From Desulfotalea psychrophila LSv54 (GTDB taxonomy: Bacteria; Desulfobacterota; Desulfobulbia; Desulfobulbales; Desulfocapsaceae), in assembly GCF_000025945.1 (NCBI RefSeq), contig NC_006138.1, forward strand, positions 1,740,001-1,772,000: a stretch of 32,000 nt of DNA, given 5' to 3'. Below, in pieces: positions 8,536 through 32,000 of the stretch. The notes under the pieces are model-generated. The model ran no database searches. It saw only the letters and a list, made by a program, of their open reading frames with translations, and had not been told where the DNA came from. Both the position numbers and the translations under genes were made by a program. Positions within the stretch are counted from its first letter, which is position 1; each line of letters opens with the position of its first letter.

Positions 8536-8592
8536 CCTGCCCTTTTCTGTTAGCTTTTTTTCTTGCTCAAAACCTCTGGCAATACCTTTCTG

Positions 8593-8955: not shown

Positions 8956-9074
8956 CTTTTCCTTTTTTGCAACATAAAAATCACTTGTGTATATTGCTAA
9001 CGTATTGAAAATACGTTTACTATCGCCTGTGCATGTACTACGCTGTCACACTGGGGAAGGCAATAAGTTTTCCT

Positions 9075-12946: not shown

Positions 12947-12950
12947 ACTC

Positions 12951-13283: not shown

Positions 13284-13298
13284 AAAAAGGTGGAGATC

Positions 13299-14885: not shown

Positions 14886-14964
14886 GTGGCTACGCCACTA
14901 TGGATGGAAAAGAACTGAATCAAGGCGGCTATCGCCGCTATAGAGATAAAAAGGGGAATAAAAA

Positions 14965-15300: not shown

Positions 15301-15679
15301 AGCCATCATCCCCGATGAAGAGCTGCGTAGGAGAGTTGAAGGCCTGAGCAGAGACGAACTCTTGCTTCTGGTCTGTGAGTTGAGCAAAAGCTCAGGGGAA
15401 CAAAAGAGAGAACCTCTGCTGACTATGACAAAGGTGATTGAGATGACAGATAAGGTGCAGGGCCAAGAAGTAAAAAAGAAAAGATACCTGGTTCTTTCAA
15501 CGGATCCCGAAGAAGCACTGCTTCAAATTGCAGACTGTATCGAAAAAAAGATGGTCTTGAAAGGACGTACCTATCCTCCAGGAGGCGACAAGAGGGCTTG
15601 CCAGGGATTTTGGCAGGATATTGGTTTTATCTACGATCTTCAGGCGATTGCTCATCAGATAGAAGAAAGACGTCAGTAA
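15290..15679 (+). CDS. hypothetical phage protein
   Basis: 129-aa ORF, co-oriented with and overlapping the preceding gene. Confidence 0.5.
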   Translation: MSLEAIIPDEELRRRVEGLSRDELLLLVCELSKSSGEQKREPLLTMTKVIEMTDKVQGQEVKKKRYLVLSTDPEEALLQIADCIEKKMVLKGRTYPPGGDKRACQGFWQDIGFIYDLQAIAHQIEERRQ

Positions 15680-15696
15680 AGAAATGGGGGGGGAAT

Positions 15697-16023
15697 ATGG
15701 GGGACGTGACGAGTTATGTAGATAGGGCTTTTGGGAAAGATATTTTTGAAAAAACTTTAGAAACAGAATTCGAAGAAAGCTTTACTGAAGATTTCTTGGG
15801 GTTCAGGCAAGAAGAAATTGAGAGTATGTCAAAAGGTCAGTTACTGAAGAGAGTAATTGAGCTTGAAAGAAGAGACTATGTAAATGGGGCAATGGGAGAT
15901 GTACTTCATTTTGCTGTCAGAGATTTGTTCTTTAATCATTTCGATTATGACGGAACAGATTGGGATGATGCCTTTAAAGAACGAATTTTACGGAACGTTT
16001 ACAGTTGTTATTTAAGAAGCTAG
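15697..16023 (+). CDS. hypothetical phage protein
   Basis: In-frame ATG at 15697 follows a G-rich SD (GGGGGGGA) inside ORF 15598..16023. Confidence 0.5.
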   Translation: MGDVTSYVDRAFGKDIFEKTLETEFEESFTEDFLGFRQEEIESMSKGQLLKRVIELERRDYVNGAMGDVLHFAVRDLFFNHFDYDGTDWDDAFKERILRNVYSCYLRS

Positions 16024-16096
16024 GGAGGGAGAGGGAATGTTTGAGAAATGAAAAGAGGATGGGACTGTTGTAGGGCCTGTTGCGCAGGAAGAGGCA

Positions 16097-16246
16097 ATGG
16101 GCCTCGTTGGTGGCCGCCCACGTGGTAGTGACTATATGGAGCGCATAAGACAGCTCGCCAACCAACGAAGAAAAGCCGCCAGACCAAAGAAAATCCGCAA
16201 GCTGTTGCCGGGCGAGGAAAATCAGCTTCGCCTGCCGGGAATGTAA
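16097..16246 (+). CDS. small basic protein (49 aa), below the ORF-track cutoff
   Basis: Hand translation gives MGLVGGRPRGSDYMERIRQLANQRRKAARPKKIRKLLPGEENQLRLPGM. GGAAGAGG lies upstream. Fills a gap that otherwise holds only antisense ORFs. Confidence 0.3.
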   Translation: MGLVGGRPRGSDYMERIRQLANQRRKAARPKKIRKLLPGEENQLRLPGM

Positions 16247-16293
16247 ATATATGCTGTAACCGCGATAAATAATGTGGAAAGGGAACAAGTAAA

Positions 16294-16869
16294 ATGACCG
16301 ACACCCCCAGCTGGCAAAACTATACCGAGACAAATAAAAAAGCCGATGTGCTGCGCTATCTGCAGGAGACGGGTTGGCAACTCAGAAAGCAGACCTTCTA
16401 CAACCACTGCGGGGATGGCAAACTCAAAAAAAACAGATCCGGTCTCTACTCAAAACAGGCCGTGAAAAAATATGCCGAAACATGGCTGGTCCATATCGGT
16501 TTGGGCAGCACGGTGGGCGAGGCGGAGGAGAACCTTGCCAAACAGAAGACCAAAAAAGAGATTGACCGGATCACCACCTCGGAACAGCACGAGCGCTTTA
16601 AACTCGATATCCTCCGGGGTAAATATATTGAGCGCTCCAAGGTAGAGCTGGAACTTGCCAGCCGTGCCGTGGTGCTCGATCACGGCCTGGACTATCTGAT
16701 AAAATCCAACGTGGCCGAGATGGTGGCCCTGGTGGGCGGTATGGCCGACAAGACAACCCTGCTGCTTGATTTTCTTCTGAAGAAAAAAGATGCACAGCTC
16801 TCGCACTATGCGAGTATCGATGATTTTACTGTAAACCTGCAAATAGAGAGCGAGGTGGAATCGTGCTGA
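16294..16869 (+). CDS. putative terminase small subunit (by position)
   Basis: 191-aa ORF whose stop overlaps the terL start. Occupies the Nu1 position. No motif recognised. Confidence 0.45.
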   Translation: MTDTPSWQNYTETNKKADVLRYLQETGWQLRKQTFYNHCGDGKLKKNRSGLYSKQAVKKYAETWLVHIGLGSTVGEAEENLAKQKTKKEIDRITTSEQHERFKLDILRGKYIERSKVELELASRAVVLDHGLDYLIKSNVAEMVALVGGMADKTTLLLDFLLKKKDAQLSHYASIDDFTVNLQIESEVESC

Positions 16870-18836
16870 GTCCCCCCAATGTGAAGATGTTCCAGGTGAA
16901 GAATATGTCTTATATCCCGGAGAGTCTGCAGAAGACGGGTTTCTGCCATACCACCTCGTTTTCTAAGGCGGAAAAACGGGTCCTGCGCAAAAAAAAATGG
17001 CAGGCTCCGAGTGAGTGGGCCCCAAAAAACAGGAAAATTGTTAAGGGTCAGCTTGCCGGCAACTATCTCAGCCTTGATATCACCCCCCATCTGCGCGGGA
17101 TCATGGATGCGGCCGTGCTTCCCTTTGTCCGTCGTCTGCATATTATGGCTGCACCGCAGACCGCAAAGACCACCCTGATAGATACCATCATCGCCTGGGC
17201 AACCATCTTTGCCCCTGGTCCTGCGGTCTCCTTTTATCCCGATGAGGTAACGGCCAAGAGATCCATGAAAGAGAGACTGCAGCCCATGGTTGCCGGTTCT
17301 CCCTCTCTGTCCCGTCTGCGTTCGGGCCATCGGGACGATTTCACCAACACCTCCATGGCCCTCTCTTCCATGACCTGGGAGGTGGGTTGGGTAGGTTCAA
17401 CCGCTCAGACCGCCGATAGATCCCTGCGCTATGTGGATATGCAGGAGGTGGATAAACCAAGTTATGGGGGGAGTAAGGAGGAGACCGGCGTGATCGAGCT
17501 GCTGCTGAAACGTCCCAGGGCCTATGGTGATACCTACAAGGTCTTCATCTCATCTTCACCCACCACCGAGGCGGGCAATATTAACATGATCATAGAGAAG
17601 GAGACCGAGGCAGTCTTCCTGCAATGGGTGCGCTGTCCCCACTGTCATGAAGAGGTGCTGATGCTCTTTAGCCACGACACCTTCCACTGGCCCCACGATG
17701 AGGAGGGACACAGTATTGACCGTAAAACGATTCTCAGTAAAAAGCTTGCCCGTTATATCTGCCCCGAATGTGCCGCCCTGTGGGATGATAACGATCGCAA
17801 TAAGGCCATTCGCCGTGATGTCTGGCGCCTGCGAATGGTGGATAATAAGGGCGAGACCCTCTATGAAAAGGGGGAGGAAATGTTTCGCTATCTGCAAAAG
17901 CACCGGCCTGCCTCCATCGGCTTTATCGTCCCCTCCTGGACAAGCTATATGGTCAGCCTCTCCGAGGTGGCCCACGACTTCCTCCGTTCCGTGGATAAAA
18001 ATATCAGTGCCGAAGAACGTCTCAAGGCCCTGAAGGATTTTAAAAACGGCCACGAGGCAAAACCGTGGAAACCGGAGATCGTAGAACGGGCGGAAGCGAG
18101 TCTTCTCCGGCTGAAAAATGATCTCCCCGCAACCGAGGTACCGGCTCAAGGGGTGGCAGGTCTCTTTGCCGGGGTCGATACCCAGGACGATGGTTTCTGG
18201 TACTGGGTCATGGCCGTGGGTTATGGCAGGGCGCCGGAGCGTTGGCTTCTTCGCTGTGGTTTTGTCTTCACCTTCGAGGCCGTGGTTCAGGTGCTCTGGG
18301 GCAATGAGTACAGGGATAAAAATGGCAATATCTATCCCGTTCATCTCTCCCTGCAGGATGCCATGGGCCATAGAACCTCGGATGTCTACGATTTCTGCGC
18401 CTCCCGTCACGGTCAGATACTACCCACCAATGGTCAGCAGACCATGGCCACCCCATACTCCACCAACGATGTCGAGTTTTATCCTGGTAGTGATAAGCGC
18501 AGGTTCCCGGGGGCGCTAAAGAGGGTGCGGGTCAATACCACCTACTATAAGGATAAGGCCGATGGCATTCTCAAGATCAATCCCGGTGATCCCGGGGGCA
18601 TCTCCTTTTATAGCGAGGTCTCCCGGGGAGATCTGCTACAGCTCTGTGCCGAAACACGAAATGAGAAGGGCTTTTGGGAGCAGATCGGGCAAAGAGATAA
18701 CCATCTCTGGGATTGTTTCTGTCTGGCCCTCTGTGCAGAGGATGTGGCCGGTGTCCGCTACTGGCCAACACCGGAAGAGCAGGAAGAGATGAGTGATGAT
18801 TTAGTGGTTGAAGATTATGCCGCAACACTGGGCTAA
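16863..18836 (+). CDS. terminase large subunit, lambda gpA family
   Basis: GTG at 16863 follows SD GAGGTGG. 657 aa. 'MAAPQTAKTT' P-loop-like segment, Zn-ribbon 'CPHCHEEV...CPECAALW', and gpA-like overall length and layout. Confidence 0.85.
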   Translation: MLSPPNVKMFQVKNMSYIPESLQKTGFCHTTSFSKAEKRVLRKKKWQAPSEWAPKNRKIVKGQLAGNYLSLDITPHLRGIMDAAVLPFVRRLHIMAAPQTAKTTLIDTIIAWATIFAPGPAVSFYPDEVTAKRSMKERLQPMVAGSPSLSRLRSGHRDDFTNTSMALSSMTWEVGWVGSTAQTADRSLRYVDMQEVDKPSYGGSKEETGVIELLLKRPRAYGDTYKVFISSSPTTEAGNINMIIEKETEAVFLQWVRCPHCHEEVLMLFSHDTFHWPHDEEGHSIDRKTILSKKLARYICPECAALWDDNDRNKAIRRDVWRLRMVDNKGETLYEKGEEMFRYLQKHRPASIGFIVPSWTSYMVSLSEVAHDFLRSVDKNISAEERLKALKDFKNGHEAKPWKPEIVERAEASLLRLKNDLPATEVPAQGVAGLFAGVDTQDDGFWYWVMAVGYGRAPERWLLRCGFVFTFEAVVQVLWGNEYRDKNGNIYPVHLSLQDAMGHRTSDVYDFCASRHGQILPTNGQQTMATPYSTNDVEFYPGSDKRRFPGALKRVRVNTTYYKDKADGILKINPGDPGGISFYSEVSRGDLLQLCAETRNEKGFWEQIGQRDNHLWDCFCLALCAEDVAGVRYWPTPEEQEEMSDDLVVEDYAATLG

Positions 18837-18845
18837 GGGGAGAGC

Positions 18846-19049
18846 ATGAAAAAGAACGGAACAATATTGGTGGGAATGGATCAGATCACCGCTTACGCAG
18901 GCAGAAACAAAGAGACCATCAGGCAGGCCATTGTTAGCCGTGGCTTCCCCGCAGTTAAGGTACGGGGAAGATGGGAGTCAAACAGTCAGCTCATTGAGGA
19001 GTGGCAGAGGAAGCAGATTGTTGCTGGGTGTGGGGTAACTCAACGATGA
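18846..19049 (+). CDS. small excisionase-type HTH protein
   Basis: SD GGGGAGAG. 'MDQITAYAGRNKETIRQAIVSRGFPAVKVRGRWESNSQLIEEW' has the excisionase/AlpA-like pattern. Composition is phage-like. Confidence 0.55.
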   Translation: MKKNGTILVGMDQITAYAGRNKETIRQAIVSRGFPAVKVRGRWESNSQLIEEWQRKQIVAGCGVTQR

Positions 19050-19058
19050 ATTAACTGG

Positions 19059-19078
19059 TTGCGGGGCTGTCTCCGCAA
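19059..19078. terminator. hairpin between convergent genes
   Basis: TTGCGG (19059-19064) pairs with CCGCAA (19073-19078) around an 8-nt loop. No strong T run. Confidence 0.3.
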
Positions 19079-19112
19079 TCCATGTTCAATGACTGGTTAG
19101 AAACCTATTTTA

Positions 19113-20519
19113 CTAAATATCAAGTATCCGCAAGTTGTTTTTATTAATTCTTTCTGACCAGTATTTTGTTATCATTTCGATATGTTGATTTTCTGTAAAA
19201 GGAGTATAACTGGAAATATTCGTCAATTTATGATTTTCCTTTTCTACCATAATACGGTCTATATCTGACCAACGATATGTGTGTTTTTGGTATTCGCATA
19301 AAATTATTTTTCTAACATCATCAAAGATTGAATAGTGAAATTCATCAGTAATCAGCCTGTCTACATTTAATATTTCGCTGAGTATCATTTCTTGTTTTTT
19401 CTTACTGAATGATTTCCAATAAGTTGGGTTGATAAACCAATGATCGCTGCTATGCATCATGAATGTTTCAATAAAACATAAAATGGTGAGTGAGCTTTGG
19501 AAGTAATAATCTATAATATTTTTAAAAAAAATACTATGCACTCTATCAGCATAACAAAAAATATAGGTACAATTTTCCATTGGAATTATATTTGTCATTA
19601 AAAGCATTTTTTTTATACTTTTTTTATTACCATAGGCCAGTGCTGTGTACCCACAAAGAGAAACTGGAAATTTATGGTTAATGCAAATACCATGATTGAT
19701 TGTTGCTCTCTCCTCCTCTATTGTTTGATTATTGTATTCATTTAGTATTTGTTCGGAAAGTCTCTTAAGATAAGCTAGGCGTTTTTCGAAATCCTTTTCC
19801 ATTCCTTGAAAGCTGATCAGTAATTTGTCAATATTTTTGATATTGATTTTTGTTAATTCTTGCTCAATTCCTCGTTGTTTCAACCTATGCCTTAATATGC
19901 CTAATGCTTCTTGCTCGATTGCTGTTCTATATGTTTCTATTTGATTTTGAATTTTATCAATTTCAATATTTAACCATACGATCTCTCTGCAAATAGCCCT
20001 AAAAGTCTGTAACTGAATAAGAGAGTCTTCGTCGATTTCACCATTTTCAATAACTTGGAATATCTGTTCATGTTTTTCACAATATCCAGGAAAAGTTGAT
20101 GCGCTCTTTATACCTACAAGATTCATTGAAACTTTCAAATTTTTCGCAAATATATCAACTACGGGCTGAAGCACATGCCCTTGATCCGCTATATATTTAA
20201 GAGAATTACCTTTAGCAATAGAGTGTGATCTTTTAATACTTAGTGAATTGCAATTCGGATACACGCAACATCTTGGCCTATTTGTTATTTTTCTACTTTT
20301 ATGAGCTAATGATTTTAATAACGGTGCATAGATTTCAAATTGCTGCATCTTAAGAGAATTGTTTGCAATAAGTCGCATGATATTGTCAAATTCTTCACCA
20401 ATAATATCTGTTTCTTTCATTATTTCCGTGGGTGTCGATGTTTTAACATAAACTTCTAACAAGGTGTTATACAGGTCTGTATAACACACAATTTTGCGTA
20501 ATAGGTAGACTGTCGCCAC
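19113..20519 (-). CDS. uncharacterised 468-aa protein with a Cys/His motif region and central coiled coil
   Basis: AT-rich ORF. 'CCVYPNCNSLSIKRSHSIAKGNSLKYIADQGHV' and 'ASTFPGYCEKHEQIFQVIE' are followed by a coiled coil. Start uncertain between GTG 20519 and ATG 20420. Confidence 0.6.
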   Translation of the reverse strand: MATVYLLRKIVCYTDLYNTLLEVYVKTSTPTEIMKETDIIGEEFDNIMRLIANNSLKMQQFEIYAPLLKSLAHKSRKITNRPRCCVYPNCNSLSIKRSHSIAKGNSLKYIADQGHVLQPVVDIFAKNLKVSMNLVGIKSASTFPGYCEKHEQIFQVIENGEIDEDSLIQLQTFRAICREIVWLNIEIDKIQNQIETYRTAIEQEALGILRHRLKQRGIEQELTKINIKNIDKLLISFQGMEKDFEKRLAYLKRLSEQILNEYNNQTIEEERATINHGICINHKFPVSLCGYTALAYGNKKSIKKMLLMTNIIPMENCTYIFCYADRVHSIFFKNIIDYYFQSSLTILCFIETFMMHSSDHWFINPTYWKSFSKKKQEMILSEILNVDRLITDEFHYSIFDDVRKIILCEYQKHTYRWSDIDRIMVEKENHKLTNISSYTPFTENQHIEMITKYWSERINKNNLRILDI

Positions 20520-20640
20520 TCCACCCTCTGTAAAACTCTAACTGAGGTGATACATAAAAAAATGTTAAGCACAAGGGGTAAGCTGCTAGAGTCGCACGTA
20601 ATATGCAAAAAAAATAAGTTGTGGAGAGATGATCCACCCC
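20519..20640. repeat. copy A of a ~122-bp block shared with 25777-25900
   Basis: Hand alignment shows identical cores TCTAACTGAGGTGATACA, ACACAAGG, TAAGCTnCTAGAGTCGCACGnAATAT and ATGATCCAnCCCC. On the minus strand it contains TTGTGC-N16-TATCAC (20547-20574) and the SD of the 468-aa gene. Confidence 0.75.
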
Positions 20641-20790
20641 GATCAGTTCAGTAAACTCCTCAAGGAAAAGGGGATCAACGTCCAGAAGGTGGGCGGGGTT
20701 GTCTACCTCTGTGGCTACACCCTCTCAGGCGAGTTTCTGGAGTCGGTTGGGAAAGGGGTGTGGGGCAGGTGGTTTGCCTGCTCCGCATAA
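20629..20790 (+). CDS. small GC-rich ORF (53 aa), phage-like composition
   Basis: Hand translation gives MIHPDQFSKLLKEKGINVQKVGGVVYLCGYTLSGEFLESVGKGVWGRWFACSA. Its first 12 nt lie inside repeat copy A. Copy B keeps only a 9-codon stub. Confidence 0.3.
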   Translation: MIHPDQFSKLLKEKGINVQKVGGVVYLCGYTLSGEFLESVGKGVWGRWFACSA

Positions 20791-20934
20791 AAAAGATTCT
20801 TTGGCGTGTTTCTGTAGATGCGTAAAGCTAAGCTCACTGGCGGCTTTAATGAAAGTGGATTAACGATGAATCTTTATTGAAATTTTGGAAAAAGCTCCCT
20901 TGGACGCCCATTGCCGTCCGTGTGTATGCTGTCG

Positions 20935-21639
20935 TTAAGTGCCAGATATTGTATGGTAAATGATTTCTGAGGTTAGCTTGTTAAATTCTAAACAAGTGTC
21001 TCTGTCAACATTATCGTCATATCTTCTAAATAAACGCTCTCCTTCATCCAAAGACAATTTTTTTCCACCATATATTAATGGAACAATATAATACTCTGTA
21101 ATCTGTTCATCAAAAGCATTTTTATAACGGACTTTTAGATAACGTCTCAAATTGATAAAACAACTTTCATCGTTTTTCTGGCAGATCCCACTATATTGCT
21201 CATCAAGTTGAGACAGTTGAAGATTATTGTTTTTTCCAAAAATGGTTGCAAGTAACCCACTCCCTTTTGCCGTCATGTAACCTGCACGATAATAACCAAT
21301 TAGAGAGTAAGTTTTTTTCTTTTGCACATTTGGTGTTTTAGATAACTCAATATCTATAAGAACTAATGAATTATAGTGAAAATCAGAGATTATAAAACCA
21401 TTGTTCTCAATGAATATTTTATCCTCTGAATATATACCAGGTATATCATCCTTTAGTTGTTTTGCAGAAATAGTAAAAACAGGTGATATTTGTTTTTTTG
21501 CAATTTTGGTTTGGACATTTAGCAATTTTGTCTGTTCTTTTGAAATTGAACATTGGCTAAATGAAACTAATATCGCCATAATTGCCAATACAGTAGCTGT
21601 CACCGTTTGAAGGTAGAATTTCACATTTTCTTTGTTCAT
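20935..21639 (-). CDS. hypothetical N-terminally anchored membrane protein, partner of the KAP NTPase
   Basis: 234-aa ORF, 75 nt downstream of the KAP gene on the same strand. TM 'LQTVTATVLAIMAILVSF'. No family recognised. Confidence 0.6.
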   Translation of the reverse strand: MNKENVKFYLQTVTATVLAIMAILVSFSQCSISKEQTKLLNVQTKIAKKQISPVFTISAKQLKDDIPGIYSEDKIFIENNGFIISDFHYNSLVLIDIELSKTPNVQKKKTYSLIGYYRAGYMTAKGSGLLATIFGKNNNLQLSQLDEQYSGICQKNDESCFINLRRYLKVRYKNAFDEQITEYYIVPLIYGGKKLSLDEGERLFRRYDDNVDRDTCLEFNKLTSEIIYHTISGT

Positions 21640-21714
21640 ATTTTTTATACTTAATGCCGTGCTCTGTGGTAAATTTGTAGTGCAGCGGGAAATTTGTCCG
21701 ACAGCAGTGCTTTG

Positions 21715-24000
21715 TTAGATTTGTGGCCAATCATCTTCGATGCCTTTTTCTCTTTGTTTTAAGGCAGCTGTGAAAAGTTTTATTGCTTCTTTGCCTTGTG
21801 CATCCATTTTTTGTTCATCGATATTACTTATTGCACTGGCAATTGGTTCGACTTCGATAAAGTTTTCTATGTCTTTCAGCTTTATATAGCTAGTAATTTT
21901 TGCTACAGAATCTTCCATTGTTTGAGAAGAAGAGTTATTAACGAATCCTTTAAGCAAATTGACACATCCATCTGCGTTTGCTGTCTGGGCTTTTAGCCAC
22001 GCAACGACCTTGTCTTCCTCCCCCCAGCGTTTCCATCTGTATAGGAAAGAAACTAGATGCTCATGTGTTATAAGCATCTCTGGATTAGTTTCAGACATAC
22101 GGTCCAATTTATGTACGAATTCTTGTTTGATCTCCTCAAATTCGTTATCCAGCAACAGAATTTTTGTTTCCGAATTCTCTCGACTATTTTCATCATGTTG
22201 TAAAATGTTCTCAACAATAGAAATACCATCTGAATTTTGGAAGCATCTCAACAATAATTGACCCCTTTCTTTACTATTGTCAACTCTCCGAAGGAAACAA
22301 ACAGCTAATTGTACTGCATGCATATTGGAGCTGGACATGGTAAAACCCATATATTTATGGTCGACTTTATCGCCTATATCAATTAGTGCTTTGATATAAC
22401 TGTAGCCATCTCCTAAAGGGATCTCATCAGTAAATGATTCAAATTGAGATAGAGCATTTTTTAGTATCCCACGTTCCATTAACAATAGAATAAATGATGA
22501 AAAACTCTCAGAGTCCGATGTGCGCGAAAGCATGTCTCTAAGATCTGAATTAGAAAGCTCACCTTTGGGAATTGAAAACTGAAAGTATTTATTGAAATTT
22601 GAGGGATGACATACTCGCATCTCTCGTAACCATCTCTTGCTAAAACAATCGGCATATTGTCTGCCATTAAGAGCCCATTCAATTGCAGGAAATAGCTGCT
22701 TTATCAGTTCTCTTACATGTTCTCTTTTATTTGTACTTGCCTTATCTAAAATTCCATTGATCAGAGAAGTTATAGCTTCCCTACTTTTTTTATCCCCGCT
22801 ATAACTACTTTTCGTAAATATATCTTTTGACCGGGCTATTTCTTTATATATTTCAGGTTCAAATATTCTTATACATTCAATTGCTATAAGATCGACGGGG
22901 TTAACCTCAAATACAGATTTACCCTTCAATAACGAAAAATGAAATGAAAGTGTTGATGTATAACGATACACGTTCCTCAAATTGTCGAAGTAAGCATGTA
23001 ATGCCCCACGAAAAATATTGCCCCAGCGCCCAGAATCAAACATTTCTGCTGCAGATTTATCTTGTTTAATAACTTGATCAATTCTACTGAACAACAAATC
23101 ATGAAGGAGTGTAACTTCAATTTTTGGAATATCAAAAGGGACTTGTATGATTTTTTCTAAATAGTCACGACCTAACTGTTTACCATCAGTTAATTTCTCT
23201 TCTACTAAATCACGCTGGAAAAGAAGAAGAAAAACCACTTTAGGAAACTCAAGGTTTGCCTTAACAAGCTGAAATACCATTCTTAGTTGGCCGGGCGTAA
23301 GTCGATCCAAATCATCCATAACTACAATCAATGATGATGCTCTTTCTGACAATAGAGATGTTAGCTCTTGTCTAATGTCACTTAAGCTTTGCTCCTTTTC
23401 TTTTGCTGTTGCCTCAGCATTACCACTAAGTTTGTTTAGTAGTCCTTTTCCCCACTTGAGGGCTGCTGCCCAAGCTGCCAATAGGCCTAAAATAGCTGTG
23501 CTAACCGTTTTTACCCAAGATTCACCAGAGAAGTTCCCCCCAACCCCTACCAGGGTAGCTAAAATAAATAGTGTTGGTAGAGCCGCTGAGAGGCCTGTAA
23601 CTAGAGATTCTCCAGTATTTAAGTATCTGCCATACTTTTTAAGCGTTGCGGACAGTTTTTTTCCTGACTTACTTTTATCTATTCGACCTATTGATTTTGA
23701 TATTTCTTGAAAAAACGAAGCTGTAATTTTATCTTGAGCTGCCCATTCCCAAGGAGAAAACTCGACAACATCCGGTCTGTTCTCAGTTAGGCTTTTTAGG
23801 TTAGCTACAGCCATATTTTTAATGGATGATTTTCCTGACCCCCAATCACCATGTAGGGCAACGACAAGACTGTCTTTTCCATGCCATCCAGCGATTGCAT
23901 CTGCCAAATCTTTAGAAAATTTGGATCGGCCTAGTAAATCTTCTTTTATTTTTAGGATTGGTCTATCGGAAGCAAATCCATGTACGTCTTGTGAATCCAT
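21715..24000 (-). CDS. KAP-family P-loop NTPase with two TM segments inserted in the NTPase domain
   Basis: Walker A 'LHGDWGSGKSSIKNM'. Hydrophobic inserts 'LSAALPTLFILATLVGVGG' and 'VSTAILGLLAAWAAAL'. Walker B 'LIVVMDDLDRLTPGQ', then 'YLEKIIQVPFDIP'. Long helical C-terminal region. Confidence 0.85.
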   Translation of the reverse strand: MDSQDVHGFASDRPILKIKEDLLGRSKFSKDLADAIAGWHGKDSLVVALHGDWGSGKSSIKNMAVANLKSLTENRPDVVEFSPWEWAAQDKITASFFQEISKSIGRIDKSKSGKKLSATLKKYGRYLNTGESLVTGLSAALPTLFILATLVGVGGNFSGESWVKTVSTAILGLLAAWAAALKWGKGLLNKLSGNAEATAKEKEQSLSDIRQELTSLLSERASSLIVVMDDLDRLTPGQLRMVFQLVKANLEFPKVVFLLLFQRDLVEEKLTDGKQLGRDYLEKIIQVPFDIPKIEVTLLHDLLFSRIDQVIKQDKSAAEMFDSGRWGNIFRGALHAYFDNLRNVYRYTSTLSFHFSLLKGKSVFEVNPVDLIAIECIRIFEPEIYKEIARSKDIFTKSSYSGDKKSREAITSLINGILDKASTNKREHVRELIKQLFPAIEWALNGRQYADCFSKRWLREMRVCHPSNFNKYFQFSIPKGELSNSDLRDMLSRTSDSESFSSFILLLMERGILKNALSQFESFTDEIPLGDGYSYIKALIDIGDKVDHKYMGFTMSSSNMHAVQLAVCFLRRVDNSKERGQLLLRCFQNSDGISIVENILQHDENSRENSETKILLLDNEFEEIKQEFVHKLDRMSETNPEMLITHEHLVSFLYRWKRWGEEDKVVAWLKAQTANADGCVNLLKGFVNNSSSQTMEDSVAKITSYIKLKDIENFIEVEPIASAISNIDEQKMDAQGKEAIKLFTAALKQREKGIEDDWPQI

Positions 24001-24032
24001 ACGATCTCTCTGAAGAATCTACGTTAAGTTCA

Positions 24033-24052
24033 CCAGCGAGCCCCAGCGAGCC
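24033..24052. repeat. tandem 10-mer CCAGCGAGCC x2
   Basis: Read directly. A GC-rich patch in the AT-rich upstream region of the KAP gene, next to the tRNA fragment. Confidence 0.6.
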
Positions 24053-24110
24053 CAGTGGAGTGAAACGGAGCGGTGTTAAAGGCCTTGTTAACTGATTGTA
24101 TTATGTTATT

Positions 24111-24138
24111 TGGGGAAAAGGGGAGGAATCGAACCTCC
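24111..24138 (-). other. tRNA 3'-end fragment (T arm + acceptor 3' strand + CCA); att-site-like remnant
   Basis: Minus strand reads GGAGG-TTCGATT-CCTCC-CCTTTTC-C-CCA. This is a 5-bp T stem, canonical 7-nt T loop, 7-nt acceptor strand, discriminator and CCA. No matching 5' acceptor strand (GAAAAGG) or D arm lies upstream. Confidence 0.5.
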
Positions 24139-24616
24139 CTGCGCTCTCTTTTGACTGATACTATATTTTAAGGTCCATCTATCTCTCATCTAGGTTGGAA
24201 AAATAGTCGTCAGACCTCTCCAGGAGCGCATTTCCAAACCAAGCGTATGCCATTTTAGAAAACCAACTAGCGTTTGCGTTTTTCATAATCACCTCAATTG
24301 CACAAGAAAAAACGTATGAAAGCAACCATTCCAACCCAAACAAGATTCCAATTTCCCATCCAATAAGTATCTTTGACGTCAAACTCTAATTATTTATCAA
24401 TCTATTTTGAATACGTTCTATACCTTTTTGGTGGTGATACCAATTTGTTGTTTAGTAAAATTACTGCTCTATAAAAGTTCTAAAAAATTTATCATGTATT
24501 TCGGTTGTTTTGAAAATACTATTGCTTTACGACTTAGCCTTATTTGCAACTTAAAATCCTGTAACTCAATGTTGCCGAGAGGCCGACAATTTTATATGTA
24601 TCCATGTCAGAACCTT

Positions 24617-24640
24617 AAAAAAGAGCACATTAAGTGTGCT
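24617..24640 (-). terminator. rho-independent terminator of the DUF3800-like gene
   Basis: On the minus strand, AGCACA-CTTAA-TGTGCT is followed by CTTTTTT. It begins 19 nt after the stop codon. Confidence 0.5.
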
Positions 24641-24658
24641 ACTTGGCACAGTGCTTTG

Positions 24659-25768
24659 TTAATCAATTTTACCAGCACGCATCGGAGCCATTAGATCCTT
24701 GAGACCTACTTCACAGTCCAACATATCATATTTTCCAGCAAGTCCGACATAAATGCTCTCACGCATATCATTTACCTTTTTTAAGTACGGCATGGTTTTC
24801 TGCGCAACAAATCCAACAAATTTTTCAAGGTCAGAGACAGAGCTAGGAATTTTATATCCATCTCGTGAGGCAGAAATTAACGCGCCATTATTTCGTAATT
24901 TTGCAATTACATTTGATCTTAGCCATCCCTTGTCTTTATTCAGTTCAATTAGACCTTCATTCTTTAGATGCTCAAGCAATGCATCACCGTATATAAATCC
25001 ATCATCTTCATCGCCAACAGAATACAGTAAATACTGTAGTGTTTCTGCTAATACACGATCTTTTTCTCTTGCCAATACTTCTTCGGCAGCATGAGTGCAA
25101 TGACGAAAGACCAGCTGATCTTCAATGCTGGTATCTACGTCAATATGGGGATCTTCTTTGGCCCTTGGCCACACGTGTACCATCCCCAATGCGGGCTTTA
25201 ATGTATCGAATGCAGATGAATCTTCCTGTTTTTCCATAAACCGACGTACCGTACCTCCAACAAAATCTGCCACCTGCAATAATTCTGACTCTATTGGTGT
25301 TGAATACTTTATTTCACGACTTGAGAACAAGTCTTGCTGAAAATGCTTGTTGATATATGGCGCGAAAGAATCCATGAAATCCTGAGAACCGTGGGTGTCA
25401 ACAACCACAATGACCTGGCTTATGCCCTTATAAATCTTTTCAAACAACCTGCGCTGACAATGCTTATAGGTTGATGATTTAAATCTAAAACCACCATTTT
25501 TGTGAAGCCGGCTCTTCATAATTATCATCACAACAAAACGAGCTCTTAATTGGCCTAGGCTTTCACATATATCTTTTCGTCGCTTTAGATTTGAACCAAC
25601 TTTTGATGACTTTAATTCTTTTCCCACGCCATGTTTATTGCGGATTTCACGAAGCAATGCGCTATCATGATCAAGGTCATTTTCGTCGTTAATTACCGCA
25701 CAGATGACATAGCAATCATCATTCAGGACTGGATCGCCCGATTCATCAATATGTATTCGTTTTCGCAT
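24659..25768 (-). CDS. DUF3800-family protein with a C-terminal wHTH-like extension
   Basis: ATG at 25768 lies 8 nt after SD GGAG; the ORF track extends to 25861. N-terminus 'MRKRIHIDESGDP' is the DUF3800 signature, with a later 'VVVDTHGS'. The C-terminal ~100 aa are rich in a helix/turn pattern. Confidence 0.7.
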   Translation of the reverse strand: MRKRIHIDESGDPVLNDDCYVICAVINDENDLDHDSALLREIRNKHGVGKELKSSKVGSNLKRRKDICESLGQLRARFVVMIIMKSRLHKNGGFRFKSSTYKHCQRRLFEKIYKGISQVIVVVDTHGSQDFMDSFAPYINKHFQQDLFSSREIKYSTPIESELLQVADFVGGTVRRFMEKQEDSSAFDTLKPALGMVHVWPRAKEDPHIDVDTSIEDQLVFRHCTHAAEEVLAREKDRVLAETLQYLLYSVGDEDDGFIYGDALLEHLKNEGLIELNKDKGWLRSNVIAKLRNNGALISASRDGYKIPSSVSDLEKFVGFVAQKTMPYLKKVNDMRESIYVGLAGKYDMLDCEVGLKDLMAPMRAGKID

Positions 25769-25776
25769 ATCATTTT

Positions 25777-25900
25777 CTCCACTTTCTGTAATGTCTCTAA
25801 CTGAGGTGATACACAAATATCTTGCTAAACACAAGGAATAAGCTACTAGAGTCGCACGCAATATACAGAAAGTAACTTATAAAGAAATGATCCATCCCCC
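25777..25900. repeat. copy B of the ~122-bp block shared with 20519-20640
   Basis: See copy A. On the minus strand it contains TTGTGT-N17-TATCAC (25806-25834) and the SD of the DUF3800 gene. The plus-strand end carries the stub ATGATCCATCCCCCTCTTGGTAGCATGTAG. Confidence 0.75.
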
Positions 25901-26096
25901 TCTTGGTAGCATGTAGCAAGTTCTCCTCACCCTGTTTCAAAACCCCCCCAAACGAAACACCTGTCAATAATCTTTAATAGCACGTACACGGCCATAGACG
26001 GCCATAAACGCGCATACACGTCTGGCGCCTAAAACAGGGTGTACTATCTCCGTATAAGTTTTGAGCTTTTTTAATAACCTCTGCGGAGAGAATCTC

Positions 26097-26330
26097 GTGG
26101 CCCCTATTGTCTGTAGTTTAGAAGAGTACCAAGCAGCACGTACAGCCAGAACCCGTCTGATAGAGGGCGCCAGGGCGGTGCGAGTGACCATCGACGGTGA
26201 CAGCACCGAGTTTACTCAGGTGAGTCTGCCCCAGCTCAACGAGACCATTGCCGGAATGCAGGCATACCAGAACTTGACCAGTGGTAATGGTGTGGTGGCC
26301 TTCAATATTCACGGCTGCAAGGGCTTCTGA
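26097..26330 (+). CDS. gpW-like head-tail joining protein
   Basis: GTG at 26097 lies 7 nt after SD GGAGAG. About 77 aa. 'LEEYQAARTARTRLIEGARAVRVTIDGDSTEFTQVSLPQLNETIAGMQ' fits the gpW pattern, and the gene sits immediately before the portal gene. Confidence 0.6.
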   Translation: MAPIVCSLEEYQAARTARTRLIEGARAVRVTIDGDSTEFTQVSLPQLNETIAGMQAYQNLTSGNGVVAFNIHGCKGF

Positions 26331-26331
26331 T

Positions 26332-27849
26332 ATGGGATCAATCGTCGATATGCACGGCAGACCCTTTGCCCAGGCCAGTTCCTCCGGAGGTTTTGGCCCT
26401 CTCTATGAGGGGGCATCCACCGCTGATCGGATCGGTACCTGGGGGCTTTCACCGGCTGGGCCCAACGTTGGCCAGAACGGGATCATTGCCATCAAGAAAC
26501 GCTCCCGCCAGAGCGAGCGCAATAATCCCACTGCCAACGGGGCCATCGATGCCTTTGTCTCCAACCTTGTCGGTACTGCCATCTCTCCTGCCTGGCAAAT
26601 TGATAATTTATTGCAAAAGGAGGAGCTGGAATCCCTCTGGCAGGACTCCCAGAAACAGCTTGATTATGTGGGCTTCACCGACTTCTACGGACAGCTTGAG
26701 CTTATCTGCCGCTCCATGGTGCGTGATGGTGAAGGTCTTGCCGTGATCCATGAGTTGCAACCCTCCCTTGATAATATTGTCCCCATTCAGATCCAGCCCC
26801 TGGAGTCTGACCACCTCGACCCCAACTTCAACGATATTTCGCCCGAAGGAAACGAGATCCGTTTCGCCATCGAGTGGAAGGCGGGTAAACGCTATCGCTA
26901 CTGGCTCTATGACAACCATCCGGGCGAGGTCTTTCTCTGCGCGGATAATATCAGACGAATTCCTGTGCCAGCGGCAGATGTTCTCCATGTCTTCCGTCTG
27001 AAAAGGGCAGGGCAGTGTCGTGGCAGTGGTTGGCTCGGTTCTGTGATCACCAAGCTTCATGACATTGATGTCTATGACGATGCCGAGCTTGTCCGGAAGA
27101 AAGCGGCCGCCCTCTGGGGTGGTTTCATCTATCAGGATAATCAGGTGGCATCTACTTCCAGTAATCCCTTTGGTGGCACCCCTGGGGCCAGATCAAACGG
27201 CGTGCAGAGCATTGAGCTGAAGGCGGGCCATTTTCCCGTATTGCGAGATGGAATGAAGATCGCCTTCTCCGAGTCGGCCGATGTGGGCAACAACTATAAA
27301 GAGTTTATGAAGACTCAGTTTCGCCTCATTGCCCGGGGCATTGGCATCACCTATGAGCAACTCACCGGCGATCTGGAAGGGGTGACCTATAGCTCTATCC
27401 GCTCCGGCCTCATCGAATTTCGCAGACTCTGTGAAACCATTATCGCCCGTACCCTGGTCTTTCAGTACTGCCGACCCATCGTCGATCGTTGGATTCGTGC
27501 TGCCATCCTCAACGGTTGTCTCAAGACCATCACCCCTGGTGAGTATCTTGCCAATCCCCGTCTCTTTCATCGGGTTGATTGGCATCCCCATGGTTGGGAT
27601 TTCACCGATCCAGTCAAGGACCGAGTGGCTGAGCTGATGGATATCAGAAGCGGGATCAAGAGTCGTCGGCAGGTGGTGGCCAAACGTAATGGCAGTGTTG
27701 AGGTGGTGGATCGTGAGAACCGCGAAGACCTGCAACGTGCCGTGGATAATGGCCTTGTCTACGATTGCTATCCCGGCCAGACCACGGGCAGTGGTGCGAT
27801 TCAAAAGGTAAGCGAACAAGTAATTCTACAATCCCTGGAGACAAAATGA
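26332..27849 (+). CDS. portal protein, lambda gpB family
   Basis: ATG at 26332 directly after the gpW stop. About 505 aa. Lies between gpW and the S49 protease, with motif-rich similarity to lambda-family portals (recollection). Confidence 0.85.
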   Translation: MGSIVDMHGRPFAQASSSGGFGPLYEGASTADRIGTWGLSPAGPNVGQNGIIAIKKRSRQSERNNPTANGAIDAFVSNLVGTAISPAWQIDNLLQKEELESLWQDSQKQLDYVGFTDFYGQLELICRSMVRDGEGLAVIHELQPSLDNIVPIQIQPLESDHLDPNFNDISPEGNEIRFAIEWKAGKRYRYWLYDNHPGEVFLCADNIRRIPVPAADVLHVFRLKRAGQCRGSGWLGSVITKLHDIDVYDDAELVRKKAAALWGGFIYQDNQVASTSSNPFGGTPGARSNGVQSIELKAGHFPVLRDGMKIAFSESADVGNNYKEFMKTQFRLIARGIGITYEQLTGDLEGVTYSSIRSGLIEFRRLCETIIARTLVFQYCRPIVDRWIRAAILNGCLKTITPGEYLANPRLFHRVDWHPHGWDFTDPVKDRVAELMDIRSGIKSRRQVVAKRNGSVEVVDRENREDLQRAVDNGLVYDCYPGQTTGSGAIQKVSEQVILQSLETK

Positions 27850-29147
27850 TTACCCCGCATATTGTCAGTGAAGTTTTAAACCGTCCCCTCCTGGTTACCC
27901 CCGATAAGCTCCACGCTATTCTCGGGGTGCTCAATAGCAAGAACGAGGGACATCTTGACCTTGATCTTGCAGCCCTTGCCCCCCTTCTGGGTGCGGATAA
28001 AAACGGTATGGCCACTCGGGCAGAATCCCGACCCGTGCGCAGAAGCAGTGATGAGGAGAAGCGGGTGGCCATCATCCCCGTGATCGGCAGTCTTGTCGCC
28101 CGTAACCGTGGTTTTGACGATGGCTCCGGTCTGCGCTCCTACCGAACCATTGCCCATGAGATCGACCAGGCCCTGGCGGATCAGTCCATCCTCGGCATCG
28201 TCCTCGATATTGACTCCTACGGTGGGGCGGCCGCTGGCTGTGCGCGTCTGGCCGGGCATATTAAGGAGGCCGGTCTCGTGAAACCCATCTATGCCAATAT
28301 TGATCTCAACTGTTTTTCGGCAGCCACCTGGATCGCCTCTGCATGCACTAAGGTCTTTTTGAGCGACGGGCTGGATGCGGGGATGGGTTCCGTGGGCTGT
28401 ATTGCCATCCATCGGGACCAGAGTGTCAAGAACGAGAAGGAGGGCGAGGTCTATACAGCCGTCTATTTTGGTGAGCGTAAGAATGATTTTAGCCCTCACC
28501 AACCACTCTCGGGTGATTTGCAGACCAAGATGCAGGCTGGGGTGGATCGGATGGGCCATGCCTTTGCCGCCGCCGTGGCAGAGAATCGTGGCCTTGATCT
28601 ACAGGCCGTCCTTAAGATGCAGGCGGGTACCTTCTATGGCCAGGATGCCATCACCCATGGTCTTGCCGATGGTGTTGCCAGCCTTACCGAAACCGTCGCC
28701 CTGCTTGGTGCAGAGGCAGAAGAAAGAGAACGGGCTTCCGTTCATAACACAACAGGCCTGACTCAGGCAAAAAACAGAGGTGAAACTATGTCACTATCCG
28801 AAAAACTCTCCGCACTTCTGGCAGAAGAGGGGGCGGTACAGGCCCTGGCCAAACTTGGCTACATTGCAGCCGATGCGGCAAAAACAGAGATGAGCGAGGC
28901 GCTTACCGCCCAAAAGAGCAGCTGTCTTGATGCCGTTAATCTGGCCGCCATCGCCGGGGCCAATGCCCTGCAGGTGAAGGCTATTTTGGAGGGTGAGAAT
29001 CTTTCCAGCGAGCATGTGGGCGCGACCCTGCAGTCCATGCGTGCCAGTGCCGGGGCCAAGAATCTTGCCTCCACCATTTCGCATGCGGCCGGTGATGGTA
29101 AACATCCCCTGGTGGCAGCGGCTGAAAAAGTTCAGAAGTCTGCCTGA
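27846..29147 (+). CDS. S49-family (ClpP-fold) prohead protease, lambda gpC-like
   Basis: ATGA overlap with the portal stop. 'VAIIPVIGSL', 'LDIDSYGGAAAG' and 'CFSAATWIASAC' are S49/SppA-type motifs. Confidence 0.8.
   Translation: MITPHIVSEVLNRPLLVTPDKLHAILGVLNSKNEGHLDLDLAALAPLLGADKNGMATRAESRPVRRSSDEEKRVAIIPVIGSLVARNRGFDDGSGLRSYRTIAHEIDQALADQSILGIVLDIDSYGGAAAGCARLAGHIKEAGLVKPIYANIDLNCFSAATWIASACTKVFLSDGLDAGMGSVGCIAIHRDQSVKNEKEGEVYTAVYFGERKNDFSPHQPLSGDLQTKMQAGVDRMGHAFAAAVAENRGLDLQAVLKMQAGTFYGQDAITHGLADGVASLTETVALLGAEAEERERASVHNTTGLTQAKNRGETMSLSEKLSALLAEEGAVQALAKLGYIAADAAKTEMSEALTAQKSSCLDAVNLAAIAGANALQVKAILEGENLSSEHVGATLQSMRASAGAKNLASTISHAAGDGKHPLVAAAEKVQKSA
28788..29147 (+). CDS. nested in-frame scaffold protein (Nu3-like)
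   Basis: Internal in-frame ATG at 28788 lies 5 nt after a strong SD AGAGGTGA. The 119-aa Ala/Leu-rich helical product shares the stop with the protease gene, as lambda C/Nu3 do. Confidence 0.5.
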   Translation: MSLSEKLSALLAEEGAVQALAKLGYIAADAAKTEMSEALTAQKSSCLDAVNLAAIAGANALQVKAILEGENLSSEHVGATLQSMRASAGAKNLASTISHAAGDGKHPLVAAAEKVQKSA

Positions 29148-29192
29148 AACAATTTTAATGTTGCGCCTTAATATCCCGACAAGGAGGAACTC

Positions 29193-29567
29193 ATGCCAGT
29201 AAAAACAGAATCCAATACCCTTTCCGATGGATTGAAATGGGAACAGGACGCCAACTATTCCCGGGCCAAGGTGACCATCGCCTACCATGCCAAGGCTCCC
29301 CTGCTCGCGGTTTTGGGGCAGGTCACCACCAGTGGCAAATATAAACCGCTTAATCCCGCCGGCGACGATGGCACAGAAAAAGCCGCCGGAATCTCTCTGC
29401 TGGCAGTCGATGCCAGTGGCGGAGATTGTGCCGGTGTCATCTTAAACGATGATGCCTTGGTCAATATGGATGCCCTGGTCTGGCCTGACGCAATAACCGT
29501 TGAGCAGAAGGCCGCCGCAATCGTTGAGCTTTCGGCCCTCGGTATCAAGGCCGTTTCCGTTGCCTAA
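29193..29567 (+). CDS. head decoration protein (gpD-like)
   Basis: SD AAGGAGGA. 124 aa. 'LGQVTTSGKYKPLNPAGDDGTEKAAGISLLAVDA...ALVWPD' matches the head-decoration-protein pattern, and the gene lies just before the major capsid gene. Confidence 0.65.
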   Translation: MPVKTESNTLSDGLKWEQDANYSRAKVTIAYHAKAPLLAVLGQVTTSGKYKPLNPAGDDGTEKAAGISLLAVDASGGDCAGVILNDDALVNMDALVWPDAITVEQKAAAIVELSALGIKAVSVA

Positions 29568-29599
29568 ACAGATACACATCAACCTACTCGGAGAATATT

Positions 29600-30622
29600 A
29601 TGTCTGATCTTATTGTTAATCCCTTTGATGACGGGGGCTATGACCTGGCCACCATGACCACTGCGGTCAACATCATTCCCAATAAATATGGTCGGCTGCG
29701 TAGCATGGGCCTCTTTGCCCGTGAGCCGGTGCAGAGTCGGGTCATCATTGTTGAAGAGAAGAATGGCCATCTCACCCTCCTGCCTTCCCTGCCTCCTGGT
29801 AGCCCTGGTACCCGGGCAAAAAATGGTAAGGGCAAAACCAGATCCTTTATCATTCCCCATATTCCCTACGACGATGTGGTTCGTCCCTCGGATATTCAGG
29901 ATAAACGCGAGGCCGGCACCTCCAACCCAAAAACCCTTGAAACCGTGATGATGCAACGTCTCACCGGTATTCGTGGTTCTCATGCCATCACCGAAGAGCA
30001 TCTCATGTGCGGGGCAATCAAGGGGATCATTCTCGATGCCGATGGCAGCGAGCTTTACGATCTCTATAAGGAGTTTGGTATCACCGCCAAGGTCATCGCC
30101 TTTGCCCTGGGTGCCGAGGGCGGCGATGTGGCGGCTAAGTGTCGCCAGGTTGTGCGTCATATCGAAGACAACCTGCTGGGTGAGGTGATGAGCGGTGTGC
30201 ACTGTATCTGTGGCGAGATGTTCATGGACGACCTCATCTCTGATCCGAGCGTTGAGAAGTTCTTCCTGAACCACACTAAGGCTCTGCAGCTTGCGGGTAT
30301 TGATGAAGATCCACGTAAGGGCTTTGTCTTTGGTGGAATCACCTTCGAGGAGTATCGGGCCAAGGCAACGGATCCAAGCACCGGTAAAGCCCGAAGCTTC
30401 ATCGGCGCAGATGATGCCCACTTTTTCCCCGTGGGTACCATGAACACCTTTAAGATCCACGATGCGCCGGCGGAGTATATGGAGACCGTAAACACCTTTG
30501 GTCAACCCCTCTATGCTAAGCAGGTGATGTCGGCCGATGGCAAGAAGATAGATATCCTCAGTGAGTCCAATCCACTGCCTATCTGTCGTCGTCCTGGTCT
30601 TTTGGTTAAGGGCACCAAGTAA
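29600..30622 (+). CDS. major capsid protein, lambda gpE family
   Basis: 340 aa. N-terminus 'LIVNPFDDGGYDLATMTTAVNIIPNKYGRLRSMGLF' is characteristic of the gpE family. SD GGAGAA. Confidence 0.85.
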   Translation: MSDLIVNPFDDGGYDLATMTTAVNIIPNKYGRLRSMGLFAREPVQSRVIIVEEKNGHLTLLPSLPPGSPGTRAKNGKGKTRSFIIPHIPYDDVVRPSDIQDKREAGTSNPKTLETVMMQRLTGIRGSHAITEEHLMCGAIKGIILDADGSELYDLYKEFGITAKVIAFALGAEGGDVAAKCRQVVRHIEDNLLGEVMSGVHCICGEMFMDDLISDPSVEKFFLNHTKALQLAGIDEDPRKGFVFGGITFEEYRAKATDPSTGKARSFIGADDAHFFPVGTMNTFKIHDAPAEYMETVNTFGQPLYAKQVMSADGKKIDILSESNPLPICRRPGLLVKGTK

Positions 30623-31984: not shown

Positions 31985-32000
31985 TAAGGAGAAGGTCATG

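Follow-up and report, generated by a model that had tools for sequence, protein, structure and literature searches.

In this work we have analysed a 32,000-nucleotide stretch of the genome of Desulfotalea psychrophila LSv54, a sulfate reducer of cold marine habitats (NC_006138.1, positions 1,740,001 to 1,772,000; this whole stretch is called the window, and its own numbering is used below), and in particular an AT-rich island which lies within a prophage between terL, the gene for the large terminase subunit, and gpW, the gene for a head-tail joining protein. Judged by comparison of sequences, the junction between these two genes appears to be a real hotspot for accessory genes, widely used and with defence strongly represented, and that the slot is a hotspot for cargo is, in our estimation, very likely. 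The island itself, from 19050 to about 25928, is probably horizontally acquired accessory cargo which occupies a hypervariable, lineage-wide slot in one clade of temperate Desulfobacterota phages whose head module is lambda-type, and it probably has an anti-phage role. The left anchor of the slot is the gpA-type terminase gene (16863..18836, + strand), whose product matches Pfam GpA_ATPase (8.9e-40) and GpA_nuclease (9.6e-41); the identical protein of D. psychrophila LSv54 (100%) bears the NCBI label 'related to terminase large subunit of phage lambda'. The first gene past the hotspot is gpW (26097..26330, + strand; Pfam gpW, 5.2e-9), which likely starts at the GTG at 26097 with GGAGAG upstream, and the right anchor is the gene for a lambda-family portal (26332..27849, + strand; Pfam Phage_portal_2, 2e-94). 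By these Pfam matches the order is that of a lambda-type head and packaging module, namely gpA-type terminase, gpW and lambda-family portal. From the end of terL at 18836 to the start of gpW at 26097 there are 7260 bp, in line with the split of about 7.2 kb reported in the initial annotation of this DNA.

The island contains four sizeable genes, all intact and all on the − strand, which code for a protein with Cys/His motifs, a membrane-anchored protein of 234 aa, a KAP-family NTPase and a DUF3800 protein. The gene list, the orientation opposite to the phage genes, the presence of a terminator-like hairpin and the repeated promoter-like blocks described earlier all hold in our re-analysis. The shift in composition, previously deduced from hand counts, was computed: the G+C content (GC) is 0.366 for 19050-25928 versus 0.535 on both sides, that is, for the genes of the candidate small terminase (terS), terL and a small helix-turn-helix (HTH) protein on the left (16294-19049) and for 26097-32000 on the right. 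The hand-counted value of about 30% is right for the genes of the Cys/His protein (an open reading frame, ORF, of 468 aa) and the 234-aa protein (0.31 each), but too low for the KAP (0.37) and DUF3800 (0.40) genes. The limits of the island had been placed at 19050-26096. They are good to about 25928, where the foreign cargo stops; the last 170 nt or so (25929-26096) are conserved, non-coding core sequence of the phage.

The terL-gpW interval in related phages

A megablast search with 16000-29000 gave no match among E. coli genomes and phage records, the terminase was at most 28% identical to those of cultured phages, searches for loci with single proteins brought up no close relative, and exact-protein look-ups of the portal and the KAP proteins were without result. 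As no close DNA relative was available, we used an alignment of 30 terL homologues for retrieval. The loci so fetched, with flanks of 10 kb, came from genomes (55) and viral contigs (80), and in 85 of these, 77 of them non-redundant, terL and the portal gene stand on the same strand. The same core genes, terL (plus the HTH gene) on one side and gpW with the portal gene on the other, flank the gap in the 85 loci. Over the 77 non-redundant loci the distance from terL to the portal gene has a median of 2784 bp, with extremes of 446 and 8934 bp. In 47 of them this gap is longer than 2 kb, and in 19 it falls below 1.3 kb and holds only the HTH gene and gpW; the 58 slots of at least 1.3 kb are occupied, mostly by genes without annotation. 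The GC of the gap is lower than that of the flanks in 76 of the 77 loci, with a mean difference of 0.10. The relatives with a minimal gap run directly from terL through the HTH gene to gpW, and this, together with the deviant GC of the island, is what is expected of a moron.

The content of the slot varies, empty states included. Homologues of the four cargo genes of the window were found in none of the 77 loci; the comparison anchored on terL and portal which had been proposed for this interval finds relatives with different cargo or with none. The four closest relatives all differ. A Desulfotalea metagenome-assembled genome (MAG), whose terminase is 59% identical, has an antisense pair of AAA_21 and RloB genes (AbiL-like) in the slot, the second has a Gp49/HI1420 toxin-antitoxin pair and the third a Fic gene plus an MqsA/DUF4258 pair. 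In the fourth, L005 (Anaerolineales MAG contig JALUDX010000090.1), about 7 kb of sense genes fill the slot (11983-19100), and the Pfam matches to Csf1 (faint) and Csf3 suggest that they may belong to a type IV CRISPR-Cas system. The same contig has a 31-nt repeat in four copies (at 16670, 16721, 18198 and 18238), whose irregular spacing is not that of a regular array.

To describe the cargo of the relatives as a whole, we ran PADLOC and Pfam on a pool of 146 gap ORFs, each 160 aa or longer. PADLOC returned AbiLi (four times), AriA-like ATPases, many type II methylases, PDC-M01A and components of MADS. The Pfam matches comprised Bro-N (six), AAA_21, RloB, integrases (three), methylases and antirepressors of the AntA, Rha and P22 types, and further Fic, ParB_N, a BsuBI/PstI restriction enzyme and PRTase-CE. 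The relatives' cargo lies on both strands, with about 64% of its coding sequence in the sense orientation. The antisense orientation on which the initial annotation had laid weight is therefore a feature of this island and not of the slot. The junction was not known to the first annotator as a place for cargo, and we too found no description of it as a hotspot in the literature searched. In phages which infect sulfate-reducing Desulfobacterota and neighbouring groups, it can be found by two anchors that are easy to recognise, a gpA-type terminase and a lambda-type portal.

The conserved edges of the slot

On the left the slot is bounded by a small gene (18846..19049, + strand), which codes for a 67-aa protein of the HTH_17 type, that is, with an excisionase/MerR-type winged helix (PHROG 66, 3.6e-4). 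The initial annotation had named it in describing the island; it is a conserved core gene and not cargo. Its homologues stand directly 3' of terL in at least 16 relatives, including cargo-free ones, and code for proteins of 61-80 aa, and 12 of the 16 members match HTH_17 of Pfam (PF12728), the best at 4e-6. On the right, an alignment of nine phages with the same type of portal revealed a conserved element (25963..26047, + strand). It is composed of a GTCAA box (25963-25967), four iterons in 10-nt phase (approximately 25983-26022) and AAAACAGGGTGTACTAT with the -10-like TACTAT (26031-26047). Across the nine phages the alignment has an invariant GTCAA box, an array of short direct repeats and an AAAW-C-N4-KK-TAnnnT box; the T, A and T of the TAnnnT part are invariant, and it is situated 45-75 nt 5' of the gpW start, with no -35. 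A pattern derived from the alignment was matched 14 times in 2.6 Mb of related loci, compared with 1.4 times in shuffled sequences. Twelve of the 14 matches are on the + strand, 250-320 nt 5' of the portal start, and three of these 12 well-placed matches are in loci with a different portal, which had not been used in building the pattern. Iterons, in three to five head-to-tail copies with a spacing of 10-11 nt, are present in ten of the 12 phages and were matched by none of 200 shuffles. Their sequence is specific to each phage, CATAnACG here and TTTCTCGT, AACCGGTAAA, GCATCATGG, TGTCACCCAC, ACCGTTTC and others elsewhere, and the motif does not recur in the rest of the window. The gene which precedes the portal gene in relatives codes for a gpW homologue ending in GGKGL. 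In the minimal phage L118 the two edges almost meet, the stop codon of the HTH gene being 15 nt from the GTCAA box.

What could be the function of such an element? A -10-like hexamer which lacks a -35 and has helically phased sites upstream is the pattern of an activator-dependent promoter. We give about an even chance to the possibility that the right-edge element is a regulated promoter which restarts transcription of the head genes, and the HTH_17 protein would be the obvious candidate for binding the iterons. The first annotation pointed out that late transcription must either cross the island or restart after it; with a conserved promoter-like element directly upstream of gpW in relatives, a restart is the likely answer. 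The slot would then be an operon boundary, at which the terS-terL-HTH unit ends and from which the head/tail unit restarts at the element. Inserts at such a boundary would not break phage gene expression, and we propose this as the reason why insertions are tolerated; the conserved frame thus suggests how a phage can accept large foreign inserts amid its structural genes. One match of the pattern speaks against a simple restart: in L096 (5484-5567) it lies about 400 nt past terL and upstream of 5.4 kb of cargo. It is the only match out of position on the + strand, and the second one, in L118, is on the − strand.

Could the element instead be a packaging site similar to cosB, at which the small terminase or else the HTH_17 protein binds the iterons? 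In that case the hotspot would adjoin cos as it does in P2/P4, and DNA ends would promote the exchange of cargo. We find this explanation doubtful, even though a number of features agree with it. Between lambda and phage 21, cosN and cosQ are conserved and the R sites of cosB are specific, and the conserved boxes around phage-specific repeats resemble this layout. The element is unique in the window and close to the terminase genes, and the HTH_17 fold is shared by the DNA-binding domain of Nu1. The hotspots of P2/P4 adjoin cos (PMC9122126). Furthermore, many contigs of relatives end 0.1-0.7 kb past terL, one of them exactly at the element. However, most contigs continue straight across it, and the one which stops there (L117) overlaps the start of a second contig of the same sample (L159) by exactly 119 nt. 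These two contigs break at the element, and the overlap, found at 12379-12497 of L118, is the element itself. The break looks like a k-mer branch of the assembly graph and not a physical DNA end, and it hints at within-population variation at the slot. The conserved boxes are also short and without the two-fold symmetry of cosN, and the invariant T-A-n-n-n-T at its place before gpW, lacking a -35, suits the activator-dependent promoter.

The cargo genes and their role

The KAP gene (21715..24000, − strand) codes for a PifA-like P-loop NTPase of 761 aa, which matches Pfam KAP_NTPase (1.6e-38) and, over positions 4-711 of the 720 in the model, PifA of PADLOC (2.6e-82). Walker A is at residue 51 and Walker B at residue 225, and between them, at 133-181, are two transmembrane (TM) segments; TM helices inserted within the P-loop domain are the trait which defines the KAP family, and PifA has them as well. 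In the F plasmid, the Pif system of PifA and PifC excludes phage T7, and this abortive exclusion is triggered by T7 gp1.2 or gp10. The protein studied here and F PifA are alike in belonging to the KAP P-loop NTPases, in their length of about 750 aa and in having TM helices between the two Walker motifs. They differ in that ours is encoded in a prophage and not on a plasmid, that they are only 25% identical, mostly within the NTPase half, and that no ORF of the island gave a PifC match in PADLOC. The 660 nt upstream of the KAP gene are non-coding, whereas in F pifC abuts pifA. Because of the low identity and the lack of a pifC gene we call the protein PifA-like and do not speak of a Pif system. 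The closest relatives, with 70% protein and about 69% DNA identity, are encoded on the conjugative plasmids pSA70-2 of Shewanella putrefaciens and pVNTG1 of Vibrio nigripulchritudo (7001-9277 in both of our loci, L149 and L150). There the gene stands alone, and in Vibrio it is flanked by insertion sequences and adjoins an anti-phage dCTP deaminase. Such identity to gammaproteobacterial plasmid genes argues for a recent cross-phylum transfer of a single-gene module, and more generally for recent traffic of defence genes between phyla in marine sediments. Phage defence by KAP NTPases, dependent on Walker B, has been demonstrated in E. faecalis (PMC13552941). Among the four cargo genes this is the one which matches a named family and hence is not new, so that the reservation in the initial annotation, that the genes might belong to a named system, applies to one of them.

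The DUF3800 gene (24659..25768, − strand) codes for an RNase-H-like protein of 369 aa, the C-terminal half of which is uncharacterised. The match to PF12686 (1.8e-9) is above the cutoff of the family, and PADLOC gave a weak match to PDC-M04A (3e-6). The motifs by which the family is defined, an N-terminal DE and a C-terminal QxxD (PMC7736814), are both intact, in IDESG at residue 7 and in QVAD at residue 165. The gene likely starts at the ATG at 25768, which has GGAG 8 nt before it; the TTG start of the listed 400-aa ORF is unlikely. A terminator-like hairpin with a T-run (24624..24640, − strand) follows 19 nt past the stop codon. The literature connects DUF3800 proteins with type VII retrons and with Cas12a2 loci (PMC7736814, PMC10910872). 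Neither setting is found here: Pfam and PADLOC detected no reverse transcriptase or Cas domain in the island, Cas12a2 included, and Rfam gave no match even at E up to 10, so that there is no adjacent reverse transcriptase with a non-coding RNA.

More questions are raised by the remaining two proteins. The Cys/His-motif protein DP1578 (19113..20420, − strand, within an ORF extending to 20519) probably starts at the ATG at 20420 and is then 435 aa long, compared with the 468 aa of the listed ORF. Only 39 homologues, all of about 425 aa, were found among 5.8 billion clusters, and C52, C57, H66, C114 and H117 are invariant in them. DP1578 has no match in Pfam, PADLOC, NCBIfam or PHROGs, and its homologues are without a Pfam domain. 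The AlphaFold2 model is confident, with a predicted local distance difference test score (pLDDT) of 90.7 and a predicted template modelling score (pTM) of 0.88, and none of its matches in the PDB and BFVD was significant (best E 0.016-0.034, global TM-score at most 0.15 when normalised by query length). In the neighbourhood of the homologues there are genes for a small serine resolvase, AbiEii, RadC and transposases. The 234-aa protein (20935..21639, − strand) is predicted to be a membrane-anchored beta-sandwich (AlphaFold2 pLDDT 96); its single TM segment is near the N-terminus, at residues 10-32. The family, which has no name, comprises 359 representatives; 60 of its members had no Pfam match, and the model of the 234-aa protein gave only weak matches to KirBac-like folds, with a TM-score of 0.3. 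PDB searches by sequence for fold assignment were without a match. Since a homologue of the 234-aa protein is encoded just after a TIR-domain gene at a locus which lacks a KAP gene, we have rejected the idea that the protein is a partner of the PifA-like one. Both DP1578 and the 234-aa protein are candidates with confident predicted structures and no relatives of assigned function.

The repeated promoter-like blocks noted earlier proved to be a real direct repeat of about 125 nt, which looks like a promoter with a 5' untranslated region (UTR). Copy 1 of this leader (20515..20645, − strand) ends at the ribosome-binding site of the Cys/His gene, and copy 2 (25765..25905, − strand), upstream of the DUF3800 gene, at the ribosome-binding site of that gene. 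The copies are about 80-85% identical, and neither leader core arose twice in any shuffle. Folding energies gave no signal of RNA structure (z = -0.95 for copy 1 and +0.21 for copy 2 relative to shuffled sequences), and in Rfam, including the RNA motifs expected for DUF3800, there was no match at gathering thresholds or at E up to 10. A widespread cassette promoter was considered and rejected: the leader was found neither elsewhere in the window nor in 141 related loci or IMG/VR, and the 26 metagenome matches are bare 17-mers consistent with chance, one longer match (L188) being inside a coding region. The leader is probably a locally duplicated promoter and 5' UTR which would give the Cys/His and DUF3800 genes a common regulation. 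The 415-nt spacer between the 468-aa ORF and the 234-aa gene (20520-20934) has a GC of 0.47 versus 0.37 for the island and contains, on the + strand, a 53-aa ORF without a family match (20629-20790). In the 660-nt spacer before the KAP gene there is a tRNA-like 3' fragment (24111..24138, − strand), which consists of a T-arm, an acceptor strand and CCA (GGAGG-TTCGATT-CCTCC-CCTTTTC-C-CCA). It is present once in the window, in which there is no complete tRNA, and IMG/VR contains no copy of it; the fragment may be the att-site scar of an integrative element.

Do these four genes work together? We have rejected the possibility that they form one system, as each of them occurs elsewhere without the others. 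Because of this lack of co-occurrence, and of their GC range of 0.31-0.40, they are independently acquired single-gene cassettes. In their most likely use, promoters of their own would drive their expression in the dormant phage, hence presumably during lysogeny, with two of them sharing the duplicated leader. The products would shield the lysogen from other phages by exclusion or abortive infection, as PifA of the F plasmid does against T7, and we consider the balance to be moderately in favour of anti-phage defence as the role of the cargo here. The initial annotation had also thought of defence or moron genes, and the content fits this, with a full-length PADLOC match to PifA and a second gene with the defence-associated DUF3800. 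The prophage demonstrably carries defence genes elsewhere (see below), which raises the prior for a defence role of the cargo between terL and gpW.

Several observations weigh against the defence role. Much of the relatives' cargo is regulatory or selfish and not defensive (the Bro-N proteins, the antirepressors, ParB, the integrases and the toxin-antitoxin pairs), as would be expected of a general accessory slot. Two of the four genes here are without functional annotation, and it is from neighbourhood alone that defence is suggested for them. The KAP protein is at a distance from F PifA and without PifC, as described above, and phage exclusion is possibly not the primary function of PifA itself (PMC13552941). 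Lastly, the numbers of consensus promoter-like and terminator-like sequences in the island equal those in shuffled sequence, only their positions being suggestive. The character of the relatives' cargo, the two unannotated genes and the doubt about PifA would also suit another explanation, namely that the slot is real and has gathered selfish, addiction or other lysogenic-conversion genes, for example a KAP protein with a membrane or signalling function, where insertion is tolerated. We regard this as unlikely. The match to the PifA model is full-length, the Walker-B-dependent defence by KAP proteins was shown experimentally (PMC13552941), retron and CRISPR loci are among the known settings of DUF3800, the same prophage has three other genes recognised as defence genes, and the homologues of the unannotated genes adjoin genes for TIR proteins, AbiEii and resolvases. 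It is highly improbable that the block is decaying junk of a defective prophage, left by one or more integrative elements and without current function, since in spite of the tRNA-like fragment, the long non-coding stretches of 415 and 660 nt, the duplicated leader and the uneven GC of the genes (0.31-0.40), all four ORFs are intact and full-length in comparison with their homologues, the catalytic and nucleotide-binding motifs and the ribosome-binding sites are kept, and the flanking phage genes are intact.

Known hotspots and the rest of the prophage

Prophage hotspots and morons are established concepts, and what we describe is a new lineage and a new position for them. Defence hotspots are known from P2/P4 prophages (PMC9122126), and hotspots of phages have been annotated systematically with iLund4u (10.1101/2024.10.15.618418). 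The slot between terL and gpW is similar to those of P2/P4 in that conserved core genes surround it, packaging or portal genes adjoin it, the content turns over between close relatives, and this content is AT-rich and of the Abi, restriction-modification and toxin-antitoxin types. In contrast, the module here is a lambda-type head module and the host belongs to the Desulfobacterota. In P2 the slot is between the replication gene A and the portal gene Q, and here between terL, with the small HTH gene, and gpW. The P2/P4 slot abuts cos, whereas the one reported here is known from sequence alone and is flanked on the right by an iteron/-10 element undescribed for P2.

The moron concept of Hendrix and Juhala was built on lambdoid phages, with lom and bor of lambda and gene 15 of HK97 as examples. 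Like morons, the island consists of genes of deviant composition between genes which are adjacent in relatives; it has putative expression signals of its own and would be expressed from the prophage. Morons are, however, single, small and usually co-oriented with the late operon, while here we see a 7-kb antisense block of four genes in a slot observed in 77 relatives. Mu-like Pseudomonas phages of the JBD30 type have an anti-CRISPR/aca locus inside the block of head genes. This too is a variable accessory locus amid head-morphogenesis genes and has a promoter and a small HTH regulator of its own, but its cargo is counter-defence, co-oriented with the head genes and only a few hundred bp long. 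The HTH regulator Aca is moreover part of the cargo there, and the HTH gene here is part of the conserved frame. The iterons can be compared with the Xis sites X1-X1.5-X2 and the R sites of cosB in lambda, where small winged-helix proteins bind to direct repeats in phase. In both cases three to five repeats follow one another head to tail, about a helical turn apart, near a gene for a MerR/Xis-type protein of 60-80 aa; the difference is that the putative sites here immediately precede a -10-like box and a structural gene and are not in attP or a mapped cos.

What is new, then, is the fixed frame of the HTH_17 gene and the iteron/-10 element, together with two cargo families of unassigned fold or function. 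No source has yielded more new bacterial immune systems than variable prophage hotspots, and the work has been almost all enterobacterial; the junction is a well-delimited site for the discovery of defence genes in an under-studied phylum. Perhaps the HTH_17 protein binds the phased iterons and activates the promoter without a -35, which would insulate the head genes from the cargo bay, or perhaps the protein and the iterons mark a packaging or recombination site which promotes exchange, and the Cys/His and beta-sandwich proteins could be new single-gene anti-phage systems. As a whole this extended model is tentative, and we would rather bet against all of it being correct.

The prophage is otherwise ordered as a gene for a CI-like repressor (9075-9536, − strand), early genes for CII-like and HTH_17 proteins, a replication module of D5_N and DnaG types, the terS candidate, terL, gpW and the portal gene. 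By the CI-like repressor gene there is a second AT-rich antisense island (2655-8133, − strand; GC 0.385). It contains a 482-aa KAP NTPase (3785-5233, − strand; PADLOC PDC-S20, 2.4e-99), a putAbiC/AbiP-like protein (5363-6511, − strand), PD-Lambda-1 (DUF4041 and T5orf172; 6547-8133, − strand; 3.5e-111) and two small ORFs without a family. The two KAP NTPases of the prophage are 23% identical to each other. The terS candidate, an ORF of 191 aa (16294-16869), has no match in Pfam or PHROG, and the same holds for an ORF of 444 aa (889-2223), a possible integrase near the left end of the prophage. The latter adjoins a host ABC permease gene at 36-701.

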